In this document: piece by piece, positions 21,001 to 64,000 of the stretch | Layout of the letters: every line of letters starts with the position of its first letter | How positions within the stretch are numbered: the stretch's first letter is position 1 | Assembly: GCA_964016885.1 (NCBI GenBank) | Contig: OZ024744.1 | Coordinates: 9,672,001 to 9,736,000, forward strand | DNA from: Eledone cirrhosa | Lineage: Eukaryota | Reading direction: 5' to 3' | DNA length: 64,000 nucleotides | Notes under the pieces: generated by a model | What the model saw: the letters and a program-made list of their open reading frames with translations, nothing else | What the model was told of the DNA's origin: nothing | Databases searched by the model: none | Position numbers and translations under genes: made by a program

Positions 21001-23376
21001 TGGTGTAGTGTAGTGTAGTGTGGTGTAGTGTAGTGTGGTGGGGTGTAGTGTGGTGTACTGTAGTGTAGTGTAGTGTAGTATAGTGTAGTGTAATGTAGTG
21101 TGGTGTAGTGTATTGTAGTATGGTGTAGTGTAGTGTAGTGTAATGTAGTGTGGTGTGGTGTGGTGTAGTGTGGTGTAGCGTGGTGTAGTGTGGTGTGGTG
21201 TGGTGTGGTCTGGTGTAGTGTAGTGTAGTGTGGTGTATTGTAGTGTGGTGTAGTGTAGTGTAGTGTAGTGTGGTGTAATGTAGGCTGGTGTGGTGTACTG
21301 TAGTATGGTGTGGTGTAGTGTAGTGTAGTGTAGTGTAGTGTAGTGTAGTGTAGTGTAGTGTAGTGTAGTGTGGTGTAGTGCAGTGTGGTGTAGTGTACTG
21401 TAGTGTAGTGTGGTGTAGTGTAGTGTGGTGTATTGTAGTGTGGTGTAATGTAGGCTGGTGTGGTGTAGTGTAGTGTAGTGTAGTGTAGTGTAGTGTAGTG
21501 TAGTGTAGTGTAGTGTAGTGTAGTGTAGTGTAGTATGTTGTATTGTAGTGTAATGAAGTGTGGTGTAGTGTAGTGTAATTAAGTGCGGTATAGTGTAGTG
21601 TGGTGTGGTGTGGTGTGGTGTGTAGTGTAGTGTAGTATGGTATATTGTATTGTAATGAAGTGTGGTGTAGTGTAGTGTGGTTTAGTATAGTGTGGTGTCG
21701 TGTAGTGTGGTGTGGTGTAGTGTGGTGTGTTGCAGTGTGGTGTGGTCTAGTGTGGTGTAGTGTGGTGTAGTGTAATGTGGTGTGGTGTGGTGTATTGTAG
21801 TGTGGTGTAGTGTAGTGTGGTGTAGGTAGTGGTGTGTAGTGTAGTGTAGGTAGTGTGGTGTAGTGCAGTGTGGTGTAGTGTGGTGTGGTGTAGTGTAGTG
21901 TGGTGTAGTGCAGTGAAGTGTAGTGTAGTGTAGTGTAGTGTAGTGTAGTGTAGTGTGGTGTGGTGTAGTGTAGTGTGGTGTAGTGCAGTGAAGTGTAGTG
22001 TAGTGTGGTGTAGTGTGGTGTAGTGCAGTGTAGTGTAGTGTGGTGTGGTGTAGTATAGTGTAGTGTGGTGTAGTGTAGTGTAGTGTGGTGTGGTGTGGTG
22101 TGGTGTGGTGTGGTGTGGTGTGGTGTGGTGTGGTGTGGTGTAGTATAGTGTGGTATGGTGTAGTATAGTATGGTGTGGTGTAGTGTAGTGTGGTGTGGTG
22201 TAGTGTGGTGTAGTTTAGTGTAGTGTGGTGTAGTGTGGTGCGGTATGTTGTAGTGTAGTGTAATGAAGTATGGTGTATAGTATTGTAGTCTGGTGTAGTG
22301 TAGTGTGGTGTGGTGTGGTGTAGTATAGTGTGGTGTAGTGTAGTGTAGTATGGTGTAGTGTAATGAAGTGTGGTGTAGTGAAGTGTGGTGTAATGAAGTG
22401 TAGTGTAGTGTAGTGTAGTGTGGTGTATTGCAGTGTGGTGTAGTGTAGTGTGGTGTGGTGTAGTGTAATGAAGTGTGGTGTAGTGTAGTGTAGTGTGGTG
22501 CAGTGTGGTGTGGTGTAGTGTAGTGTAGTGTGGTGTAGTGTGGTGGGGTGTAGTGTGGTGTAGTGTAGTGTAGTGTAGTGTAGTGTAGTGTAGTGTAGTA
22601 TGGTGTAGTGTGGTGTAGTGTAGTGTGGTCTGGTGTGGTCTGGTGTAGTGTAGTGTAGTGTAATGAAGTGTGGTGTAGTGTATTGTAGTATGGTGTAGTG
22701 TAGTGTAGTGTAGTGTAGTGTAGTGTAGTGTAATGTAGTGTGGTGTGGTGTAGTGTGGTGTAGCGTGGTGTAGTGTAGTGTGTTGTGGTCTGGTGTAGTG
22801 TAGTGTAGTGTAGTGTAGTGTAGTGTAGTGTAGTGTGGTGTATTGTAGTGTGGTGTAGTGTAGTGTAGTGTAGTGTAGTGTGGTGTAATGTAGGCTGGTG
22901 TGGTGTACTGTAGTATGGTGTGGTGTGGTGTAGTGTAGTGTAGTGTATTGTAGTGTGGTGTAATGTAGGCTGGTGTGGTGTACTGTAGTATGGTGTGATG
23001 TGGTGTAGTGTAGTGTAGTGTAGTGTAGTGTAGTGTAGTGTAGTGTAGTGTAGTGTAGTGTAGTGTAGTGTAGTGTAGTATGTTGTATTGTAGTGTAATG
23101 AAGTGTGGTGTAGTGTAGTGTAATTAAGTGCGGTGTAGTGTAGTGTGGTGTGGTGTGGTGTGTAGTGTAGTGTAGTGTAGTGTAGTGTAGTGTGGTGTGG
23201 TGTGGTGTATTGCAGTGTAGTGTGGTGTAGTGTAATGAAGTGTGGTGTGGTGTGGTGTGGTGTGGTGTGGTGTAGTGTCGTGTCGCATGGCGTAGTGTGG
23301 TGTTGTGTAGTGTAGCGTGGTGTAGTGTAATGAAGTGTGGTGTAGTGCAGTGCAGTGCGGTGCGGTGTGGTGTGGT
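1..23376 (+). repeat. Pentanucleotide satellite (TAGTG/TGGTG)n, G/T-rich on + strand, with interspersed variant units and kb-scale internal duplications
   Basis: Continuous 5-bp periodicity with variants CAGTG, TAGTA, TAATG, TCGTG. The His/Thr/Tyr/Leu/Pro ORFs on the - strand are translations of this repeat. The array runs off the left edge of the window. Confidence 0.98.
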
Positions 23377-23759
23377 ACACCTCACTTCATTACACTACAC
23401 TACACCACACTACACTACCTCACACTTCATTACACTACACTACAGTACACCCACCACACCACACTACACTACACTACACTACACTACACTACACTACATC
23501 ACACTACACTACCCTACATCACACTTCATTACACTACATCACACCACACTACACCACACTGCATTACACTACACACGACACCACACCACACCACATTACA
23601 CTACACTACACTTCACTACACTACACCACACCATACTACACCACACTACACCACACCACACTACACCACACCACACCACACCACACTACACCACACCATA
23701 CCACACCACACTACACTACACTACACCACACAACACCACACTATACCACACTACACCAT
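23377..23759 (-). repeat. Same pentamer satellite in inverted orientation (CACTA/CACCA on +)
   Basis: Abrupt switch at ...gtgtggt|acacctcacttcattacactacac; C/A-rich pentamers continue to ~23759. Confidence 0.95.
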
Positions 23760-23799
23760 CGTATGTAGCACGATGGCAGTAAGCAACAAATCTACAGAG

Positions 23800-24140
23800 A
23801 TTGTAGTGGAGGCTGGACATCTAGTGTTACCTCGACCACGTGGACGTTCTGAACTCCACTCAATTTTGTAAACCTCCAGACGATTACAGTGGAAACTGGG
23901 CCTCCAGTTAACCCTCTGCCGTCTGTGAACGTTTTATCGTGGGTCCTCAATTCTGTAGAGGTCCAGATTTGAGGGACGGAGAGACTGGACGGTGACAGTG
24001 GAAACTGGACGTCCAGTCTCCAGACAATATACGCCGATGTGAACGTCTTATCTCGGGTCCTCAATTCCGTAGACGTTCAGAGTTGAGGGACGAATGGACG
24101 TCCAGGAAATGGATGGAAAATTGGACTTCATTCAGACAGT
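23800..24140. repeat. Degenerate ~85-115 bp tandem repeat (about 3 units) with internal hairpins; origin unknown
   Basis: Recurring blocks gtgga(a/g)(a/g)ctgg at ~23806/23889/23998, gtg(a/g)acgt, ctcaatt(t/c)(t/c)gta and tgagggacg at ~23970/24084. Perfect palindrome actggacgtccagt at 24004-24017. Confidence 0.7.
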
Positions 24141-24317
24141 GGGGGTGAAGTTAGCTCAAAGTTACGTAGCCCGCTTCGAGTAGATTGTGATGTTTTGGTG
24201 AATGCACAATTTGGGGTCATGTTGCCAATGCCAATGAAACTGAATATTAGTGACTGAGGCCAAAGTATCTGACAACGAAGATGGCCCGTTGCTGTCCAGT
24301 GTCATCGAAATATCTTT

Positions 24318-24900
24318 ATCATTATTTTACGTTCGCTTTCCCTGCCTGCAAGGGTGGGACGGGTCCTATTCAGCACAGCATTTCTCCACTTGTCACGGTC
24401 CTTTCGTCATCTCCGTGAGCTTCATCAATCTGAGGTCTGCTCTCACCACCTCCGCCCATGTTTTTCGTTGTCTTCCTCTACTGAGTCTTCCTTCCACTGG
24501 GATTTCTTGGCACTTCTTTACCCAGTGGTCATCCTCCATGCACATCACATGTCCATACCATCGCAGTATTCTCTCCTGCACACTACAAATTATCCCTATT
24601 ATACAGTTTCCCTCTCAACTCATCCATGCTTGGTCGTTCACGCACATTGACACTGCACATCCAACGGAGCATGCTGGCTTCATTTCTCTCCAGCCGTCAC
24701 ACACCCTCTGCAGTTGCTGCCCATGTCTCACTACAATGCAGCATCGCGCATCTCACAAAGGCATATAATCGGCCTTTCGTACGCAGGGAGAAACCCTTCT
24801 TTGTCAACAGAGGAAGCAGCTCCCTAAACATTTTCCAACCCGTCCTTATTGTAGATACTATGGCCTCGGAGCACCCTCCTCCCTTGCTAATCTGTTCATC
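24318..24900 (-). mobile_element. RTE-clade LINE, 5'-truncated decayed 3' fragment
   Basis: - strand peptides EQISKGGGCSEAIVSTIRTGWKMFRELLPLLTKKGFSLRTKGRLY...MLHCSETWA and QERILRWYGHVMCMEDDHWVKKCQEIPVEGRLSRGRQRKTWAEVVRADL. The RWYGHV...GR.RKTW signature is typical of the RTE ORF C-terminus. Frameshifted; short atc/att-type tail near 24318. Confidence 0.88.
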
Positions 24901-25099
24901 GAAATAGCCGTTGCATATTTCCTCAGCAGGCATCGAGATCTGTGTGAGAAAAGTAAAGTAATGGAGCCGATCTTGAGATCAGACAAAAACTGTTTTCGGA
25001 CAAAAAACTATTTTCTGTTAGCTGCAATATTTGGCAAAAGGTACAAGCTGAAATGAAATGTTTTGTTCAATAACACAACTGTTTCTACTTTTGGCACAA

Positions 25100-25190
25100 G
25101 GGGTCAGCAATTATCTCAGTACATTACTGGTACTTTATTTTATCGACCCCTTAAGGATGAAAGGCAAAGTTAACCTCGGCGGGATTTGAC
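25100..25190 (-). mobile_element. tRNA-derived SINE fragment (octopus-type), left half of palindrome centre
   Basis: - strand reads tcaaatcccgccgaggttaactttgcctttcatccttaaggggtcgataaaataaagtaccagt. This is a B-box remnant followed by the ...gcctttcatcc...ggtcgataaaat...gtaccagt body that I recognise from octopus SINEs. Confidence 0.7.
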
Positions 25191-25199
25191 CCCTTACAG

Positions 25200-25280
25200 T
25201 CTGAGTTCAAATCCAGCCAAGATTAACTTAAGGAGTCGATAAAACAAAGTACCAGTAATGTACTGAGATAATTGCTGACC
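25200..25280 (+). mobile_element. tRNA-derived SINE fragment, right half of palindrome centre (internally deleted)
   Basis: ctgagttcaaatccagccaagattaact...gtcgataaaacaaagtaccagt, with B-box GTTCAAATCC at ~25205. Confidence 0.65.
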
Positions 25281-25482
25281 CCTTGTGCCAAAAGTAGAAA
25301 CAGTTGTGTTATTGAACAAAACATTTCATTTCAGCTTGTACCTTTTGCCAAATATTGCAGCTAACAGAAAATAGATTTTTGTCCGAAAACAGTTTTTGTC
25401 TGATCTCAAGATCGGCTCCATTACTTTACTTTTCTCACACAGATCTCGATGCCTGCTGAGGAAATATGCAACGGCTATTTCG

Positions 25483-25627
25483 ATGATCAGATTAGCAAGG
25501 GAGGAGGGTGCTCCGAGGCCATAGTATCTACAATAAGGACGGGTTGGAAAATGTTTAGGGAGCTGCTTCCTCTGTTGACAAAGAAGGGTTTCTCCCTGCG
25601 TACGAAAGGCCGATTATATGATGCCTT
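25483..25627 (+). mobile_element. RTE LINE fragment duplicated in the right palindrome arm
   Basis: Encodes DQISKGGGCSEAIVSTIRTGWKMFRELLPLLTKKGFSLRTKGRLYDA; reverse complement of ~24757-24900. Confidence 0.85.
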
Positions 25628-25659
25628 GAGGAAATATGCAACGACTATTGCAATAACAT

Positions 25660-25725
25660 AACACATACACTGTCGGTCCAGGAATCGAACCGGTTTGATT
25701 CATGAACGCGAGTTTAATACCAAAC
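25660..25725 (-). mobile_element. Probable tRNA-derived SINE head remnant
   Basis: - strand gtttggtattaaactcgc...ggttcgattcctggacc: an A-box-like segment followed by B-box GGTTCGATTCC. No full cloverleaf. Confidence 0.4.
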
Positions 25726-26056
25726 AGGAAAAATTTGAAAAGAATTTTACAAGAAAAAATGAAAACGGAATCAAATTCGATGTTTAAGAAGCTTCTTTTA
25801 ATAGATCTTTCAAGAGAGACAAAAATATTTTAAAATACAAATAAAACGATTCAGCGTTTATCTCTCAATATATATTCGTTCTAATTCTAAATAAATAGCA
25901 ATAATTTCGGTAAATATACTTTCCGTGTCTCTAAATTACATTTCAAAAGAAATAAAATGTTATTTTGACTTTAGGAAAATATCATACAGCTGAGCGAAAC
26001 TTTTTTTTTTTTGAAAAAAAAGGAAGATTTTTCCAGTACGACATTTTTCCACGGCT

Positions 26057-26062
26057 TTTATT
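26057..26062 (-). terminator. Candidate polyadenylation signal AATAAA of the protamine gene
   Basis: tttatt on +, about 14 nt past the stop codon, followed on - by a T-rich tract near 26014-26021. An alternative ATTAAA lies at 25797-25802. Confidence 0.5.
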
Positions 26063-26075
26063 TCGTGTTAGCGTT

Positions 26076-26438
26076 TCAACATTTCCTCCTGCATCGTTTC
26101 TTTTTCCTTTTCGGACACCTCCTTTTAGGTCTCCGTTTACAACACCTTAGCTTCTTCCTTGGACATGGGCATGGGCATCTCCTTCGCCTTCTACAACACT
26201 TGCTACGTCTTCTACAACATTTTTTCACTATTCTGCTGCATCTACGTCGACATCTTCGACATCTTTTTTTTGATCTTGATCTACATCGTGGTTTACATCT
26301 TGGTCTACATCGTGGTTTTGAACCACAAAACGAAGTTACAATTTTACATGGAGATGGCAACGCCGCCATTACAGTTGACGGCTCTTGTCTGCCCTTACGC
26401 CCCTGAAGGGTCTCCTTGCGAATTTCATGCGTTCCCAT
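26076..26438 (-). CDS. Cysteine-rich sperm protamine precursor (Eledone-type protein E), 120 aa, intronless
   Basis: ATG at 26438, TGA at 26078-26076. Residues 37-120 (FCGSKPRCRPRC...KKKRCRRKC) are 84 aa with 31 Arg, 16 Lys, 19 Cys (22.6%), 8 Pro and no acidic residues. This fits the length and Cys content I recall for E. cirrhosa cysteine-rich protamine. Synonymous codon variation between peptide repeats (CGA/AGA/AGG, AAA/AAG) indicates real coding rather than simple repeat. Confidence 0.93.
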   Translation of the reverse strand: MGTHEIRKETLQGRKGRQEPSTVMAALPSPCKIVTSFCGSKPRCRPRCKPRCRSRSKKRCRRCRRRCSRIVKKCCRRRSKCCRRRRRCPCPCPRKKLRCCKRRPKRRCPKRKKKRCRRKC

Positions 26439-26550
26439 TCCTTTTTACTAAGTTCATAAGATAAAAAGGGGAAAATAAAAAAATCTTCCTTCTTGTGTGA
26501 GTAACGGTCTCGAAATGTGACAACGCTTTGAAAGTTTGACAATTGTATTA

Positions 26551-26566
26551 TGACGTCACTGACGTA
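26551..26566. promoter_or_regulatory. cAMP-response element TGACGTCA plus adjacent CRE-like TGACGTA
   Basis: Perfect palindromic CRE at 26551-26558 and TGACGTA at 26560-26566, 113 bp upstream of the protamine ATG. Inr-like TCACATT on - at 26520-26514. Confidence 0.65.
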
Positions 26567-26574
26567 TTAGGATA

Positions 26575-27212
26575 TTATTGGTTGTTTGGTTGGTTGACTG
26601 GTTGGCTGGTTGGCTGGTGGCTAATTGGCTGGCTGACTGGTTGGTTGGCTGGCTGATGGTTGGTTGGCTGGTTGGGTAGCTGGTTGGTTGTTTGGTTGGC
26701 TGGCTGGTTGCATGGTTCACTGGGTGACTGGTTGGTTGGCTGGTTGACTGGTTGGGTGGTTGGTAGTTTGGTTGGCTGGCTGGTTACATGATTCACTGGG
26801 TGACTGGCTGGTTGGTTGGTTGGTTGACTGGTTGGGTGGTTGGTTGTTTGGTTGGCTGGCTGGTTGCATGGTTCACTGGGTGACTGGTTGGCTGGCTGGT
26901 TGGTTGGTTGGTTGGCTGGGTTTCTGGTTGGTTGGCTGGTGTGGTGGCTGGTTGGCTGGTTGTTTGGGTGGCTGGCTGGTTGCATGGTTCGCTGGGTGGT
27001 TGGATGGTTAACTGGGTGACTAGTTGGTTGGTTGGTTGGTTGGTTGGTTTGTTGGATGGTTCGCTGGGTGACTGGTTGGCTGGTTAGTTGGTTGGCTGGC
27101 TGACTAGTTGGTTGGCTGGCCGACGGTTGGTTGGCTGGTTGGGTGGCTGGTTGGTTGTTTGGTTGGCTGGCTGGTGGGATTGTTTGCTGGGTGGCTGGTT
27201 GGTTGGCTGGCT
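26575..27212. repeat. Compound tetranucleotide microsatellite (TGGT/TGGC)n with a recurring catggttcactgggtgact block
   Basis: 4-bp periodicity. The block recurs at ~26711, 26787, 26867, 26983 and 27055. The Gln/Pro/Asn/Thr and Trp/Leu/Gly ORFs are artefacts. Confidence 0.95.
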
Positions 27213-27545
27213 GCTCTTTTTAATACAGCTGTCATCCTTCATACGCATCACATGTCCATACCAATGCAACCGCCTCTCCTGCACACAGCATTTGATTCTT
27301 CTTATGCTCAGTCTCTCTCTCAATTCATTTATGCTTTGTCGTTCGCGATTATTACTATTACACATCATCTAATATTGCCGTTTGTATACAAGCATCATAC
27401 AATCTGCCTTTCACTTTTAAAGAAAAACCTCTTGTGGCTAACAGCGGTATTAGTCCACGGGACCTTTTCCATCCCGTTCTATCGCTGGCTTCTGTACTTT
27501 CAGAACACCCTCCTCCACTGCTAATTTTGTCACCCATTCGCAATT
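27213..27545 (-). mobile_element. Second, more diverged RTE LINE fragment
   Basis: Peptides GDKISSGGGCSES...TGWKRSRGLIPLLATRGFSLKVKGRLYDACIQTAIL and INELRERLSIRRIKCCVQERRLHWYGHVMRMKDDSCIKK. Internally deleted and cut off at the microsatellite. Confidence 0.85.
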
Positions 27546-28430
27546 TTCAACTGCCACTTTTATGCAAATTTTTTTTACTTCCGTTGTCACTCTTGTCTTC
27601 ATAAAAACAGTGACTATATTTCCATTATTTATTTTCAGAATAATTGATTATGAATAATTTTGAACCTCCAAATTTGTGGAAGCGACACAGAGTTCTTCTT
27701 GGAATCCGCACCGGGAGGACAAATAAGGAAATTTCAGACTTTCTCAGCGTCAGCAGGAGAATGGTGGAAAAGGTAAAAAAGGAATTGGAAGATTCAGGAT
27801 TCGACTACGAAGCAACATCAGAGAGGAAAACACATGATCGACGATCTGACGCCTTCAGAAAGCCCGGGTTCGTCGCTGTAGTTCAGGATATCATCAACAA
27901 TGAACCTAGCAAGTCGATGTGTGCCATTGCAAGGGAGAAGGGCGTGGATGAAAAGCTCATTAGGCTGGTGGTACATGAAGACATTCACTACGTTTCATAC
28001 AAGATGAGGAAAGAACAATTTATGTAAAAGAAAAGTGACTGAAGCACGCAAAGAAGCTGATCAACAAGTTGAAACACCCACTGGAGCCAGACTTGCTGTG
28101 GTTTTTTCTCCAACGAGAAAAACTTCTGCCAAGACCAGAAGATCAACTCCCAGAACAACAAGTGGTTCGCTGTCTCATCCAAAGACATGCCCAGAGTCAT
28201 GCAGACAAAGTTTCCAGCGACAATATTGGTCTTAGGTGTCGTCAGAGGTAGCCGGTTCCGAGGCCGCCTTGAGGCTGTCATCAAAGCCAATGGCGGGTTT
28301 ATCGAGTGAGATTGAAAGAACAAGTCATGAAGACAAACTTAGCCAAGTTTGATAAATATATCTTTAAAAATAAAACTACTGTTATTTTTTCCTAGACAGT
28401 AATCTTTCGAGCAAATATCGGCCGCACCCT
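27546..28430 (+). mobile_element. Tc1/mariner-superfamily DNA transposon (maT/DD37D-like), defective
   Basis: Transposase remnant plus a right end ...gcaaatatcggccgcaccct resembling a TIR. No matching left TIR is visible, so the left boundary is approximate. Confidence 0.75.
27650..28309 (+). pseudogene. Transposase pseudogene
   Basis: Two HTH-like segments (TNKEISDFLSVSRRMVEKVKK; SMCAIAREKGVDEKLIRLVVHED), then stops and frameshifts at ~28025-28110. Next comes FSNEKNFCQDQKINSQNNKW...KFPATILVLGVV fused directly to the C-terminal RFRGRLEAVIKANGGFIE*. The first catalytic Asp is changed (FSDEK to FSNEK) and the rest of the catalytic core is deleted. Confidence 0.82.
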
Positions 28431-60878: not shown

Positions 60879-61158
60879 TGTGGTTAGAAAAAGCTATCTC
60901 ACTTACCGCTTTTCACAGGCGCCGCTAAATTCCACTGCAGGTACTCCTCTTCCACGTGCGTCCGACCGCTTAACACCGGGAGCTGCCCAAAACGCGTCCT
61001 CACCGTATGCTGGTCACCACTAGAGAGAGGCCCTCTCCTGGCCATTCCGGTCGAGCATCCTTCCGGTCAAAGACCCCTTCCGGTCGAGCACTCAAAAACC
61101 CCTTCCGGTCGAGCACTCCCCCCCGCCCCCGGCCACCGCACGCCACACCATACCCACA
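60879..61158 (-). repeat. 3' LTR, 280 bp, termini TGTGG...CCACA
   Basis: Begins on + immediately after the satellite sequence cataccat with tgtggtta and ends tacccaca at 61158. A purine tract caggggggcg (-) at 61168-61159 directly precedes it. Confidence 0.78.
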
Positions 61159-61168
61159 CGCCCCCCTG
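61159..61168 (-). other. Polypurine tract (plus-strand primer)
   Basis: caggggggcg lies between the integrase stop (61172) and the LTR start TGTGG. Confidence 0.7.
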
Positions 61169-61171
61169 ATC

Positions 61172-63960
61172 TCAAGGATCAATTTCCCCCTCGTCCCTCT
61201 GCATATGAAAGTCTGCCGTCCAGGTCGGTGGTCTACGACTTCGTTGCGATCTTCGTAGTATTGGGGCAGGGCTCTGGGTTTCCACCTCATCTTGGGTTTC
61301 CTCTTCCTCGGAGTCCGTCGACACAGTGATTCTTCTTACATCCAGGACATGACGTGGTACCCCGTCCACGGACACATTGTTCTTTGAATTTACGGCCGTC
61401 ACCGTTCCCCTTCCCCATTGAGATGTGCACCGTGCATCTGTAGGCTTAACCCAGACTTCTTCGCCCCCCTGCACGAATGCACTCTCTCTCCCCACTGGCC
61501 GTTGTGGTGGCGTGCACGGGTGCCGCCACTCGTATTTGAATACTGCTCTGTGTGGCACCGATTCCTCGACCTGTCCAACCCGAGGGGACATATCGTACCA
61601 GAACACTGCCTCCATTGGTGAGATATGACCCCGCTCCGCCATTGCCTTGATCGTTGGGTGGTGTCGCTCCACGATTCCATTCCCGCTCGGCCTGTGCGCT
61701 GCTCTGAAGAAACGGTCCACCTTCCATCCCTCGAGCATCCCCCTCAGTGCCTCCGAGCGGAACGCTGCGCTGTTGTCCATCAGCAGTTCATCCACAGGGC
61801 CCCGCTCCAAGAACACCTCTCTCAACGTCCGCACGATTTCCTCGGCCGTTCCAGTCTTCATCTCCCTCCATATCGCCACTCGACCTGGTCCACAGTCGAC
61901 CATCGAGAGGTACGTTCCCTGCCGGTAGTGCGTCACATCCACCGCTAATCGCTTCCAGTCGCGATCCACCGGGAGGCTTCCCGTTTCGTGTACACCCGGG
62001 GCGGGATCAATGGACTGACATCGGACGCAGCCTCTAACCACCCCCCGAACACTGTGTCTGCTAACGTCCGAGTCGATTCTCCTGGCTAGGAACAGGCTCC
62101 TATCCACCCCCATGTGGTGCATGTCATGCAACCCCTTCAGGTCTAACTCGGTCAGCCGACACACGGCAGCTATCTCATCCTCTACCTCCCCCGGCGCTTC
62201 CATCCAGGCTTTCTTCACTCTAGTTAAGATGTCCGCCCTATTTTTCTCTGAAGGCACGAACACTACGCTCAGGTCGAACTCGGTGGCCAGCTCTCGTAAC
62301 GTTCCCAGGCGGCGCTTTATCAGCATCTCCGCCGCGCCTCTCGTTCGCACTCTCTTCTCATTGGTGAGCACTGATCTTACCCATCCGAGTACGGTAGCCG
62401 AGTCGGTGCGTATCTCGATGGTGCGCAGCCCCCACCGCAGAGCGAGGTTCACCCCTCTCAACACCGCGTCCAGCTCGGCCACATTGATGTGGCTGCAGTC
62501 GTCCTTCTTTCTAAGTCAGGCTGCATCCTCGACCTCAACACCTCCTATCTCCAACGTGACACCCAGCGCTATGCTGCTGGCATCGCACCATACGGTCCCG
62601 CTCCGTGATTTGGGAACGTACCAGCGTCCCCGCACTGGGTCGTCGGCCTTCACCCTCCCCACGATCTCCTGCATCATGGCCACCGTTCTCTCTCCCACTC
62701 TGTCACTCCAAGTCACCCCTCCCGCTCGTCTCTTGACATAGCTGCATGCCGTCCGGAGCCACCCAGCGATCGGGTAGTGACCCACCAGCTTTCCACACAC
62801 CGAGAAAAGCTCCCGCCTATTCATACTTGGGCCCAGTTCCGGAACTTCGTTTCCCCTCTGGAACACCAAAACGCCCGTCTTATCTCGCCGTAGCCTAAGT
62901 CCCAGCGCGGCTCCTCCCTCCAATGCTTCTGATGGCTTCGCAGTCAGTCCATACCTCTGCAAATGGCTCGTGACCTCCGCCGTCGACACCACCGACTCGT
63001 CCACTAGGATGTCGTCAATGTAGGAGTTAGTAGCCCTCTTTATCCTGTCGGCCCTCCCCAGAGCGGTCTTGAGGACCGCCGCCATGATCTTCGGTGCGGA
63101 GCTCAGTCCGAAACCGAGCCTGGTCAGGCAATATGTCCGGCCCTAAAAACCTGACCAGCTGATACCGCCAGAGCTTCTCATCTATATGCAACTGCAAGTA
63201 AGCCGACTTTAGATCCACGATCGCGTCATGCGTCTCCACTCACGCAGGGTTTCCCCACAGACATCCGTGACCTCGCCACCCGTGTGGCATGACACGTGCT
63301 CGTTCAGCTCTCGATAGTCCAGCACCGGCCTCACCTTGCTCTTCGTGGGTTGCACCACCGCCATTAACGGAAATACTCCGCACTTCAGCTCCTCCTTCCA
63401 GGGAAGCAGTATGCCCTCTTCGATCCATCTCTCTACTTCTCGCTCCTAGCATTTCCCTTCAATGTGTGTTGATAGTAGCCCACTTTGGTCTTCAGTGTTG
63501 GTGGTTCTCCCTTCCAGTACCACTCAACAACCCATCGCTGCCCATCAAACACGGCCTTGAAGTCTTTGTCCTGTACAGTGTAAGCGGGGTATTCCTCCTC
63601 GTGAGCCTTCTGGTTCTCATGACGTGCACTCACAGCGCATACCGATGCAGCGGCGCCAAACGACACACCGACATTGTTCACCGTGACGCCCCCTAGACGG
63701 CCAATCGCGTCCATGCCCATAACCACGCCGATCCCATCCACCACACTGTCTACCACGATGGCGGAAAGCCTTATCGTCCTTCCCCGTACCGCTATTTCCA
63801 TCTCGCTGCGACCTCGGCATTCAATTTTCCTGCCGTCGACTGCCCTTACGCTGCTCTTCCCTCCCCACCTCTGCGCCACCCCCGCGGTCATCAGTGTCGT
63901 CGTACAGCCCGTATCCACGAGGGCTCGCTGTGGCTTCCCCCTCACGAAGACTTCCACCAC
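61172..63960 (-). pseudogene. pol: Gypsy pol (PR-RT-RNaseH-IN), disrupted
   Basis: Pieces 63433-63960 (PR), 63027-63239 and 62516-63085 (RT/RH), and 61172-62482 (RH/IN). Frameshifts near 63445, 63225 and 63140, and an in-frame TGA at 62518-62516 (EDAA*LRKKDD, probably from TGG). Confidence 0.9.
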
Positions 63961-64000
63961 GGGCAGCGCCGCTACTCGTAAGGGGCAACTACCGGCGCAG

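Follow-up and report, generated by a model that had tools for sequence, protein, structure and literature searches.

Protamines, which are expected to be disordered proteins, are encoded by genes with a recurrent anatomy of a CRE, a TATA box and a poly(A) signal. The protamines of squid and cuttlefish, including Sepia protein T, contain far more Arg than the octopod protein considered here, lack a Cys network, carry leaders of ~21 aa and are expressed from genes with a TATA box; cuttlefish leaders are hydrophobic and Arg-free. The Loligo opalescens protamine gene, said to have been described by Lewis et al. in 2004, is reportedly intronless and possesses a CRE. For the octopod Eledone cirrhosa, a 2002 abstract is said to give protein E 84 residues, 19 of them Cys, with 36.9% Arg, 19.0% Lys and 22.6 mol% Cys, and the work itself reportedly described one protamine at the protein level, with no precursor reported. 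Among mammalian protamines, PRM2 is His-rich and is encoded by a gene with introns.

A cysteine-rich protamine forming inter-protamine disulfides has been published for E. cirrhosa (Gimenez-Bonafe et al. 2002, PMID 12113475) and is cited in a number of papers (PMC11607694, PMC12216123, PMC3710222, PMC5122968). N-terminal cleavage is common among the protamines of vertebrates and invertebrates alike, squid included, where an N-terminal piece is removed in spermiogenesis (PMC12216123). Likewise, PRM2 is made as a precursor that is trimmed on chromatin (PMC13756071, PMC9273070), and without the leader of the mouse protein histones are not fully exchanged for protamines (PMC9273070). Protamine genes also tend to escape annotation (PMC12216123).

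Here we describe a locus on the reverse strand of a 64-kb stretch of E. cirrhosa DNA (the window, meaning the whole of the stretch analysed) which, with a probability of about 0.82, is a single-copy, precursor-type protamine gene of an octopod, most likely encoding protein E of this species or of a close relative. The open reading frame (ORF), taken at its longest (26438-26076), translates to 120 aa plus a stop codon and represents the long form of the protamine precursor. The Arg/Lys/Cys-rich domain that would form the mature protein, residues 37-120 (26330-26079), has its Phe37 boundary set by the reported length of protein E. Its 84 aa include 31 Arg, 16 Lys, 19 Cys, 8 Pro and 5 Ser, with 47 Arg plus Lys (56.0%), 22.6% Cys, 11 basic clusters and no acidic residue, giving a net charge of +47, a pI of 11.76 and a mass of ~10.6 kDa; the size, charge and Arg clusters place it in the protamine class.

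This frame differs sharply from what shuffled DNA yields: Arg, Lys and Cys account for 66 of the 84 residues, as against a maximum of 38 and a mean of 26.3 in 5000 dinucleotide shuffles, in which, over three frames, the frame was kept open just 24 times. The remaining two frames on the same strand contain 3 and 9 stops; shuffle composition and these stops together exclude a chance frame. Arg alternates between two synonymous codons in the repeated units of the ORF, a pattern of selection at the protein level, and the protamine frame is a real coding frame, not a by-product of repeat DNA. It is present in all three DNA runs of one sample without a differing letter or gap, each run giving one contig path across the ORF at 80% likeness with no paralogue seen; these runs are possibly the window's own source, and test accuracy and copy number, not conservation. 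A single RAD run (X4) gave no coverage of the gene, which was thus seen in one individual only. Assembly error at the ORF is disfavoured as far as testable, and the gene is probably single-copy and intronless.

The original prediction had proposed, from the letters alone, an intronless protamine gene with a second in-frame ATG at 26369, a mixed-charge leader and an 84-aa domain that was 56% basic with 19 Cys. Translation of 26438-26076 reproduces the 120-aa frame and its leader as written, the recount of the domain agrees, the second ATG is present, and residues 1-36 are indeed of mixed charge (3 Glu, 3 Lys, 3 Arg and 1 His). Composition, codon pattern and gene anatomy give good support to the assignment as a protamine gene, and 'intronless' holds for the frame in the DNA only. 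Features beyond those originally listed are the out-of-frame ATGs at 26457 and 26428, a CRE and a flanking inverted repeat.

The counts in residues 37-120 (31/84 Arg, 16/84 Lys and 19/84 Cys) match those reported for protein E. The 84-aa length was picked in the original prediction to fit protein E, whereas the Arg, Lys and Cys counts were not so picked; starts at residues 34 to 38 all yield these same counts, with Phe37 alone giving 84 aa. This comparison with the composition reportedly given for protein E makes it likely that residues 37-120 are that protein. The pI of 11.76 lies marginally under the value in a general description of protamines as being 30-106 aa long with a pI of 12 or more (PMC12216123), which the domain otherwise resembles in being small, very basic and Arg-clustered. 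With 36.9% Arg, and 56% Arg and Lys combined, it falls short of the 60-80% Arg of typical protamines (PMC3073880); such a low value does not exclude it from the class, because human P2 has 32.4% Arg (PMC3710222).

Database searches suggest that the protein is absent from the collections searched. Exact look-up matched none of seven start variants, word-seeded homologue searches gave 207 candidates with none at E 0.001 and, in a second search, 13 candidates with none at E 10, and phmmer found no match among 1.84 billion representatives. Similarly, no Pfam family, Protamine_P1 and Protamine_P2 included, was matched by any of three protein forms at E up to 1; there was no PDB match for the protein, none of 594 pattern matches in a metagenome scan was confirmed, and the protein was not matched in the two supplementary files of PMC11607694. 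Near copies would have scored: in a sensitivity control, which did not cover the word-seeding step behind the 207-candidate search, all 20 substituted copies carrying 4 to 25 changes in 84 residues were recovered at E <1e-5, as against 0/20 shuffles. The protein motif was not found in the open-access papers searched, and neither was a description of the gene in the open-access literature, the relevant cephalopod papers being in subscription journals outside that search.

The domain resembles protein E in length, Cys, Arg and Lys by the reported values and is probably the same protein, to which the gene adds a promoter and a leader of either 13 or 36 residues. The intronless frame and CRE reported for Loligo opalescens are also found here, and the gene shares with squid and cuttlefish precursors a less basic in-frame N-terminal piece before the mature domain, of 13 or 36 residues with a net charge of +1 or +3; by contrast with those genes, the octopod one encodes abundant Lys and Cys and lacks a canonical TATA box. 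Mammalian PRM2 is likewise Cys-containing, Arg-rich and of the precursor type, with a cleaved cP2 domain, but has no sequence match to the octopod protein in Pfam and an Atlas score of 0.75 (a lead only), and convergence best accounts for the likeness. PRM1 similarly has clustered Arg and cross-linking Cys, and of the Atlas clusters that of sperm protamine P1 comes nearest, with scores of 0.82 and 0.83 that lie below 0.9 and serve as a lead only. PRM1 has no precursor, however, and differs from the octopod mature domain, with its 84 aa, 22.6% Cys and 19% Lys, in having 51 aa, 11.8% Cys and no Lys (PMC3710222); translation of its mRNA is delayed (PMC2120489).

Measured against the usual anatomy of protamine genes, the locus has a CRE, an AATAAA that is present but common, and a TATA box matched only with two mismatches. 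The palindromic CRE octamer (26551..26558), the sole copy in the window, sits 113-120 nt upstream of ATG 26438, and shuffled versions of the 211 nt upstream of ATG 26369 contained such an octamer in 58 of 20000 cases. A canonical TATA box is lacking upstream, the best matches being eight sites with two mismatches. An AATAAA poly(A) signal (26062-26057) lies 13 nt past the stop codon, which alone is not rare, as 2618 of 20000 shuffles placed one within the first 40 nt; the first CA beyond it is followed by 12 genomic A (26013-26001).

Whatever the start site, the DNA constrains the protein's N-terminus. Two in-frame stop codons (26450-26445) cap the frame, making any extension of the protein upstream past ATG 26438 impossible, and no AG dinucleotide, hence no splice acceptor, occurs between 26382 and 26305. 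No splice can therefore place another start beside Phe37, and every mRNA has ATG 26369 and residues 24-36. At least 13 residues thus precede Phe37, and a precursor follows if the mature protein begins there. The cut at Ser36|Phe37 in the original prediction consequently follows from the DNA on that same condition, with no acceptor intervening, whereas the 36-aa length it gave the pro-segment is about as likely as one of 13 aa. Given aminopeptidase specificity, Phe37 cannot be exposed by Met removal alone, and another proteolytic step is therefore required. An upstream coding exon was also considered, but the in-frame stop at 26447-26445 rules it out, and splicing from a donor-like site at 26398 inside the leader was rejected because it would permit introns of only 5-17 nt. 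Because cleaved leaders are common in protamines, a leader is expected rather than surprising (PMC12216123).

By analogy with the protamines of mammals and squid, transcription in spermatids would be driven by a CREM/CREB-type factor, and the less basic leader would temper DNA binding and aid orderly histone replacement before being cut at Ser36|Phe37; the 84-aa product would then neutralise the DNA backbone and be locked by inter-protamine disulfides. The leader of mouse PRM2 would be the best functional model for the octopod leader.

The leader has a minimal part, the 13 residues 24-36 that begin at the second ATG (26369-26331; GRAVY +0.85, with no Arg, one Cys and one Ser-Pro), and a possible hydrophilic, mixed-charge extension, residues 1-23 (26438-26370; GRAVY -1.45). 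The choice between the two starts is about even, each ATG having a purine at -3 and G at +4: a leader of 36 aa has an even chance, one of 13 aa is just short of that, and both forms may be made. Two short out-of-frame frames accompany these starts, each in weak start context, one of 10 codons (26457-26425) spanning ATG 26438 and another of 19 codons (26428-26369) ending in a stop that shares the first base of ATG 26369; this layout, occupying 26457-26369 on the reverse strand, could permit reinitiation.

The long leader, of mixed charge and PRM2-like in character, would arise from transcription starting near 26518, or from an upstream non-coding exon spliced to the AG at 26448, with scanning leaking past the weak AUG at 26457 to 26438 to produce the 120-aa precursor; these steps taken together have somewhat less than an even chance. 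Besides the purine at -3 and G at +4 of ATG 26438, they draw on a weak initiator-like heptamer (26520-26514) upstream of all the ATGs, with a candidate start at ~26518, that lies ~33 nt past the CRE, although such heptamers are common (three matches in 280 nt). G+C climbs from 0.23-0.33 to 0.53-0.57 near ATG 26438, an extension this long occurs in 4% of shuffles, the 5' arm of a possible RNA helix described below needs a start upstream of 26494, and a pyrimidine tract and AG ahead of 26447 make the non-coding exon possible. Against this, an unspliced mRNA contains the upstream AUG at 26457 with its frame overlapping ATG 26438, a word-seeded search with residues 1-42 returned no candidate and no relative, and the codon pattern of residues 1-23 is unlike that of the rest of the ORF.

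The short leader, which we hold tentatively, would instead follow from a start at ~26416-26421, between the in-frame ATGs, leaving ATG 26369 as the first AUG of an mRNA for a 97-aa precursor whose 13-aa leader is hydrophobic and Arg-free; residues 1-23 would then be promoter and 5' UTR, open by chance. A weak, A-rich TATA-like stretch (26450-26440) is at a suitable distance to imply this start, but it has two mismatches and is one among eight such sites. The resulting mRNA is free of upstream AUGs, and the hydrophobic, Arg-free piece resembles the cuttlefish leaders. An upstream in-frame ATG ahead of any stop turns up in 13% of shuffles, although an open extension of at least 23 codons does so in only 4%. 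Third-position G+C is 11/22 in codons 1-23 versus 26/96 downstream (p = 0.044, uncorrected for amino-acid make-up or multiple tests), and the Lys codons in 1-23 are both AAG, compared with 13/17 AAA downstream. The helix of 19 bp would, on such an mRNA, have no RNA to form in.

That helix stems from a 16-nt inverted repeat bracketing the ORF. In coding-strand RNA, 19 unbroken pairs (16 Watson-Crick and three G-U) can join 26494-26476 to 26017-26035, the latter arm overlapping a U-rich stretch past the poly(A) signal; RNA of the opposite strand can form only 13 pairs. In the modelled pre-mRNA, 13 of the 19 pairs have a probability of at least 0.95, and helices of at least 19 pairs occurred in 0, 0 and 2 of 1500 shuffles that kept 2-, 3- and 4-letter words, and never among 92 pairings made with other real stretches. 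The helix was nevertheless spotted post hoc, and its arms, at -19.1 kcal/mol alone, are A/T-rich. Folding of the whole RNA is unremarkable (z = -1.54, with 6 of 100 shuffles equally stable), the total duplex energy is equalled by 20 of 500 shuffles, and this energy is slightly lower on the opposite strand (-40.5 versus -37.6). The 3' arm starts 22 nt past the AATAAA, such that the usual cleavage would remove much of it, while the first CA past that signal is four bases beyond the arm. Rfam matched neither the gene region nor the helix.

It is an unlikely model that an mRNA running from ~26518 to at least 26017 is looped by an end-to-end UTR helix serving as a storage device, with late release and synthesis of both 36-aa and 13-aa leaders. 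The short frames would in that case act at both starts, the frame of the weak upstream AUG spanning the first and the stop of the second frame overlapping the second, and both leader forms would be cut at Ser36|Phe37. The delay described for protamine mRNAs depends on proteins binding UTR elements, and a brief, non-exhaustive search of the literature on that delay did not meet an end-to-end helix. The looped mRNA is a reasonable hypothesis because in mice protamine mRNAs undergo storage and late translation (PMC2120489, PMC3798277).

It is improbable that the ORF encodes another basic, Cys-rich protein, such as a cross-linked sperm-tail or structural protein, a metallothionein-like protein or a secreted peptide of antimicrobial or venom type. 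The very high Cys content, the CC and CPCPCP motifs and the lack of homology proof of protamine identity would suit such proteins. A charge of +47 in 11 basic clusters, with no acidic residue in 84 aa, instead fits nucleic-acid binding, the counts equal those reported for protein E, and the hydropathy profile, on which this point is based, reveals no signal-peptide-like hydrophobic core of the kind a secreted Cys-rich peptide would carry (GRAVY of residues 1-36 -0.62, the 13-aa piece being short).

Least probable is a processed or dead copy of a protamine gene located elsewhere, as the missing intron, the 12-A run after CA downstream of the AATAAA and the position amid LINE remnants and satellites might indicate, since the frame is intact and preceded by a CRE, the A run lies 43 nt away from the AATAAA, no target-site repeat of at least 6 nt was found and no second copy was seen at 80% likeness in any of the three runs, whose contigs can reveal that a copy is present but not that it is absent. 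A relocated retrogene that still functions is possible, and the protamine verdict is the same either way.

The protamine gene is genuine, its protein probably already known and its leader of a kind already known, so that the general picture of protamines, in which leaders are expected, is unchanged. The locus probably provides an unusually cysteine-rich protamine of an invertebrate with its gene, promoter and precursor, one case of disulfide-locked sperm chromatin arising separately from mammals. The predicted masses (~11.8 kDa for the short form without Met, 14.4 kDa for the long form and 10.6 kDa for the mature protein) and the cleavage site are exact enough to make processing directly testable, and the leader and CRE offer a non-repetitive handle for finding octopod protamine genes.

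The gene occupies an island of ~5 kb (23750-28430) flanked by a 23-kb pentamer array (3-23357) on one side and by a 32-kb array of an 80-nt unit (28430-60878) on the other; the two arrays together make up 87% of the window. Such a position for a single-copy spermatid gene, between two huge satellite arrays, is possibly heterochromatic. The pentamer array, followed to 23756, flips orientation at ~23360-23383, with 370 nt in the reverse sense, and 23796-24105 holds degenerate repeats of 62-nt and 30-nt families at ~110-nt spacing. The 80-nt unit matches LINE-like remnants at ~24540-24630 (82-88% identity) and 27240-27330 (70-75%), and the array at 28430-60878, which has a higher-order structure and dozens of spurious long ORFs, appears to be a satellite that expanded from a fragment of a retroelement. 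A fold-back (24762-25620) lying ~450 nt downstream of the gene, with 394-nt arms, 99% complementary, 71 nt apart and partly LINE, represents either an inverted duplication of recent date or an artefact of assembly. On the forward strand, 27650-28300 contains a broken transposase-like remnant with weak helix-turn-helix matches, whose motifs are Tc1/mariner-like. On the reverse strand, 60900-64000 is an LTR-retroelement pol remnant of 57-59% G+C, broken by stops and frame changes, with a DUF7047 match and a weak integrase core match (E 4.9e-5, under the Pfam cut-off). These arrays and retroelement remnants fit a repeat-rich animal genome.
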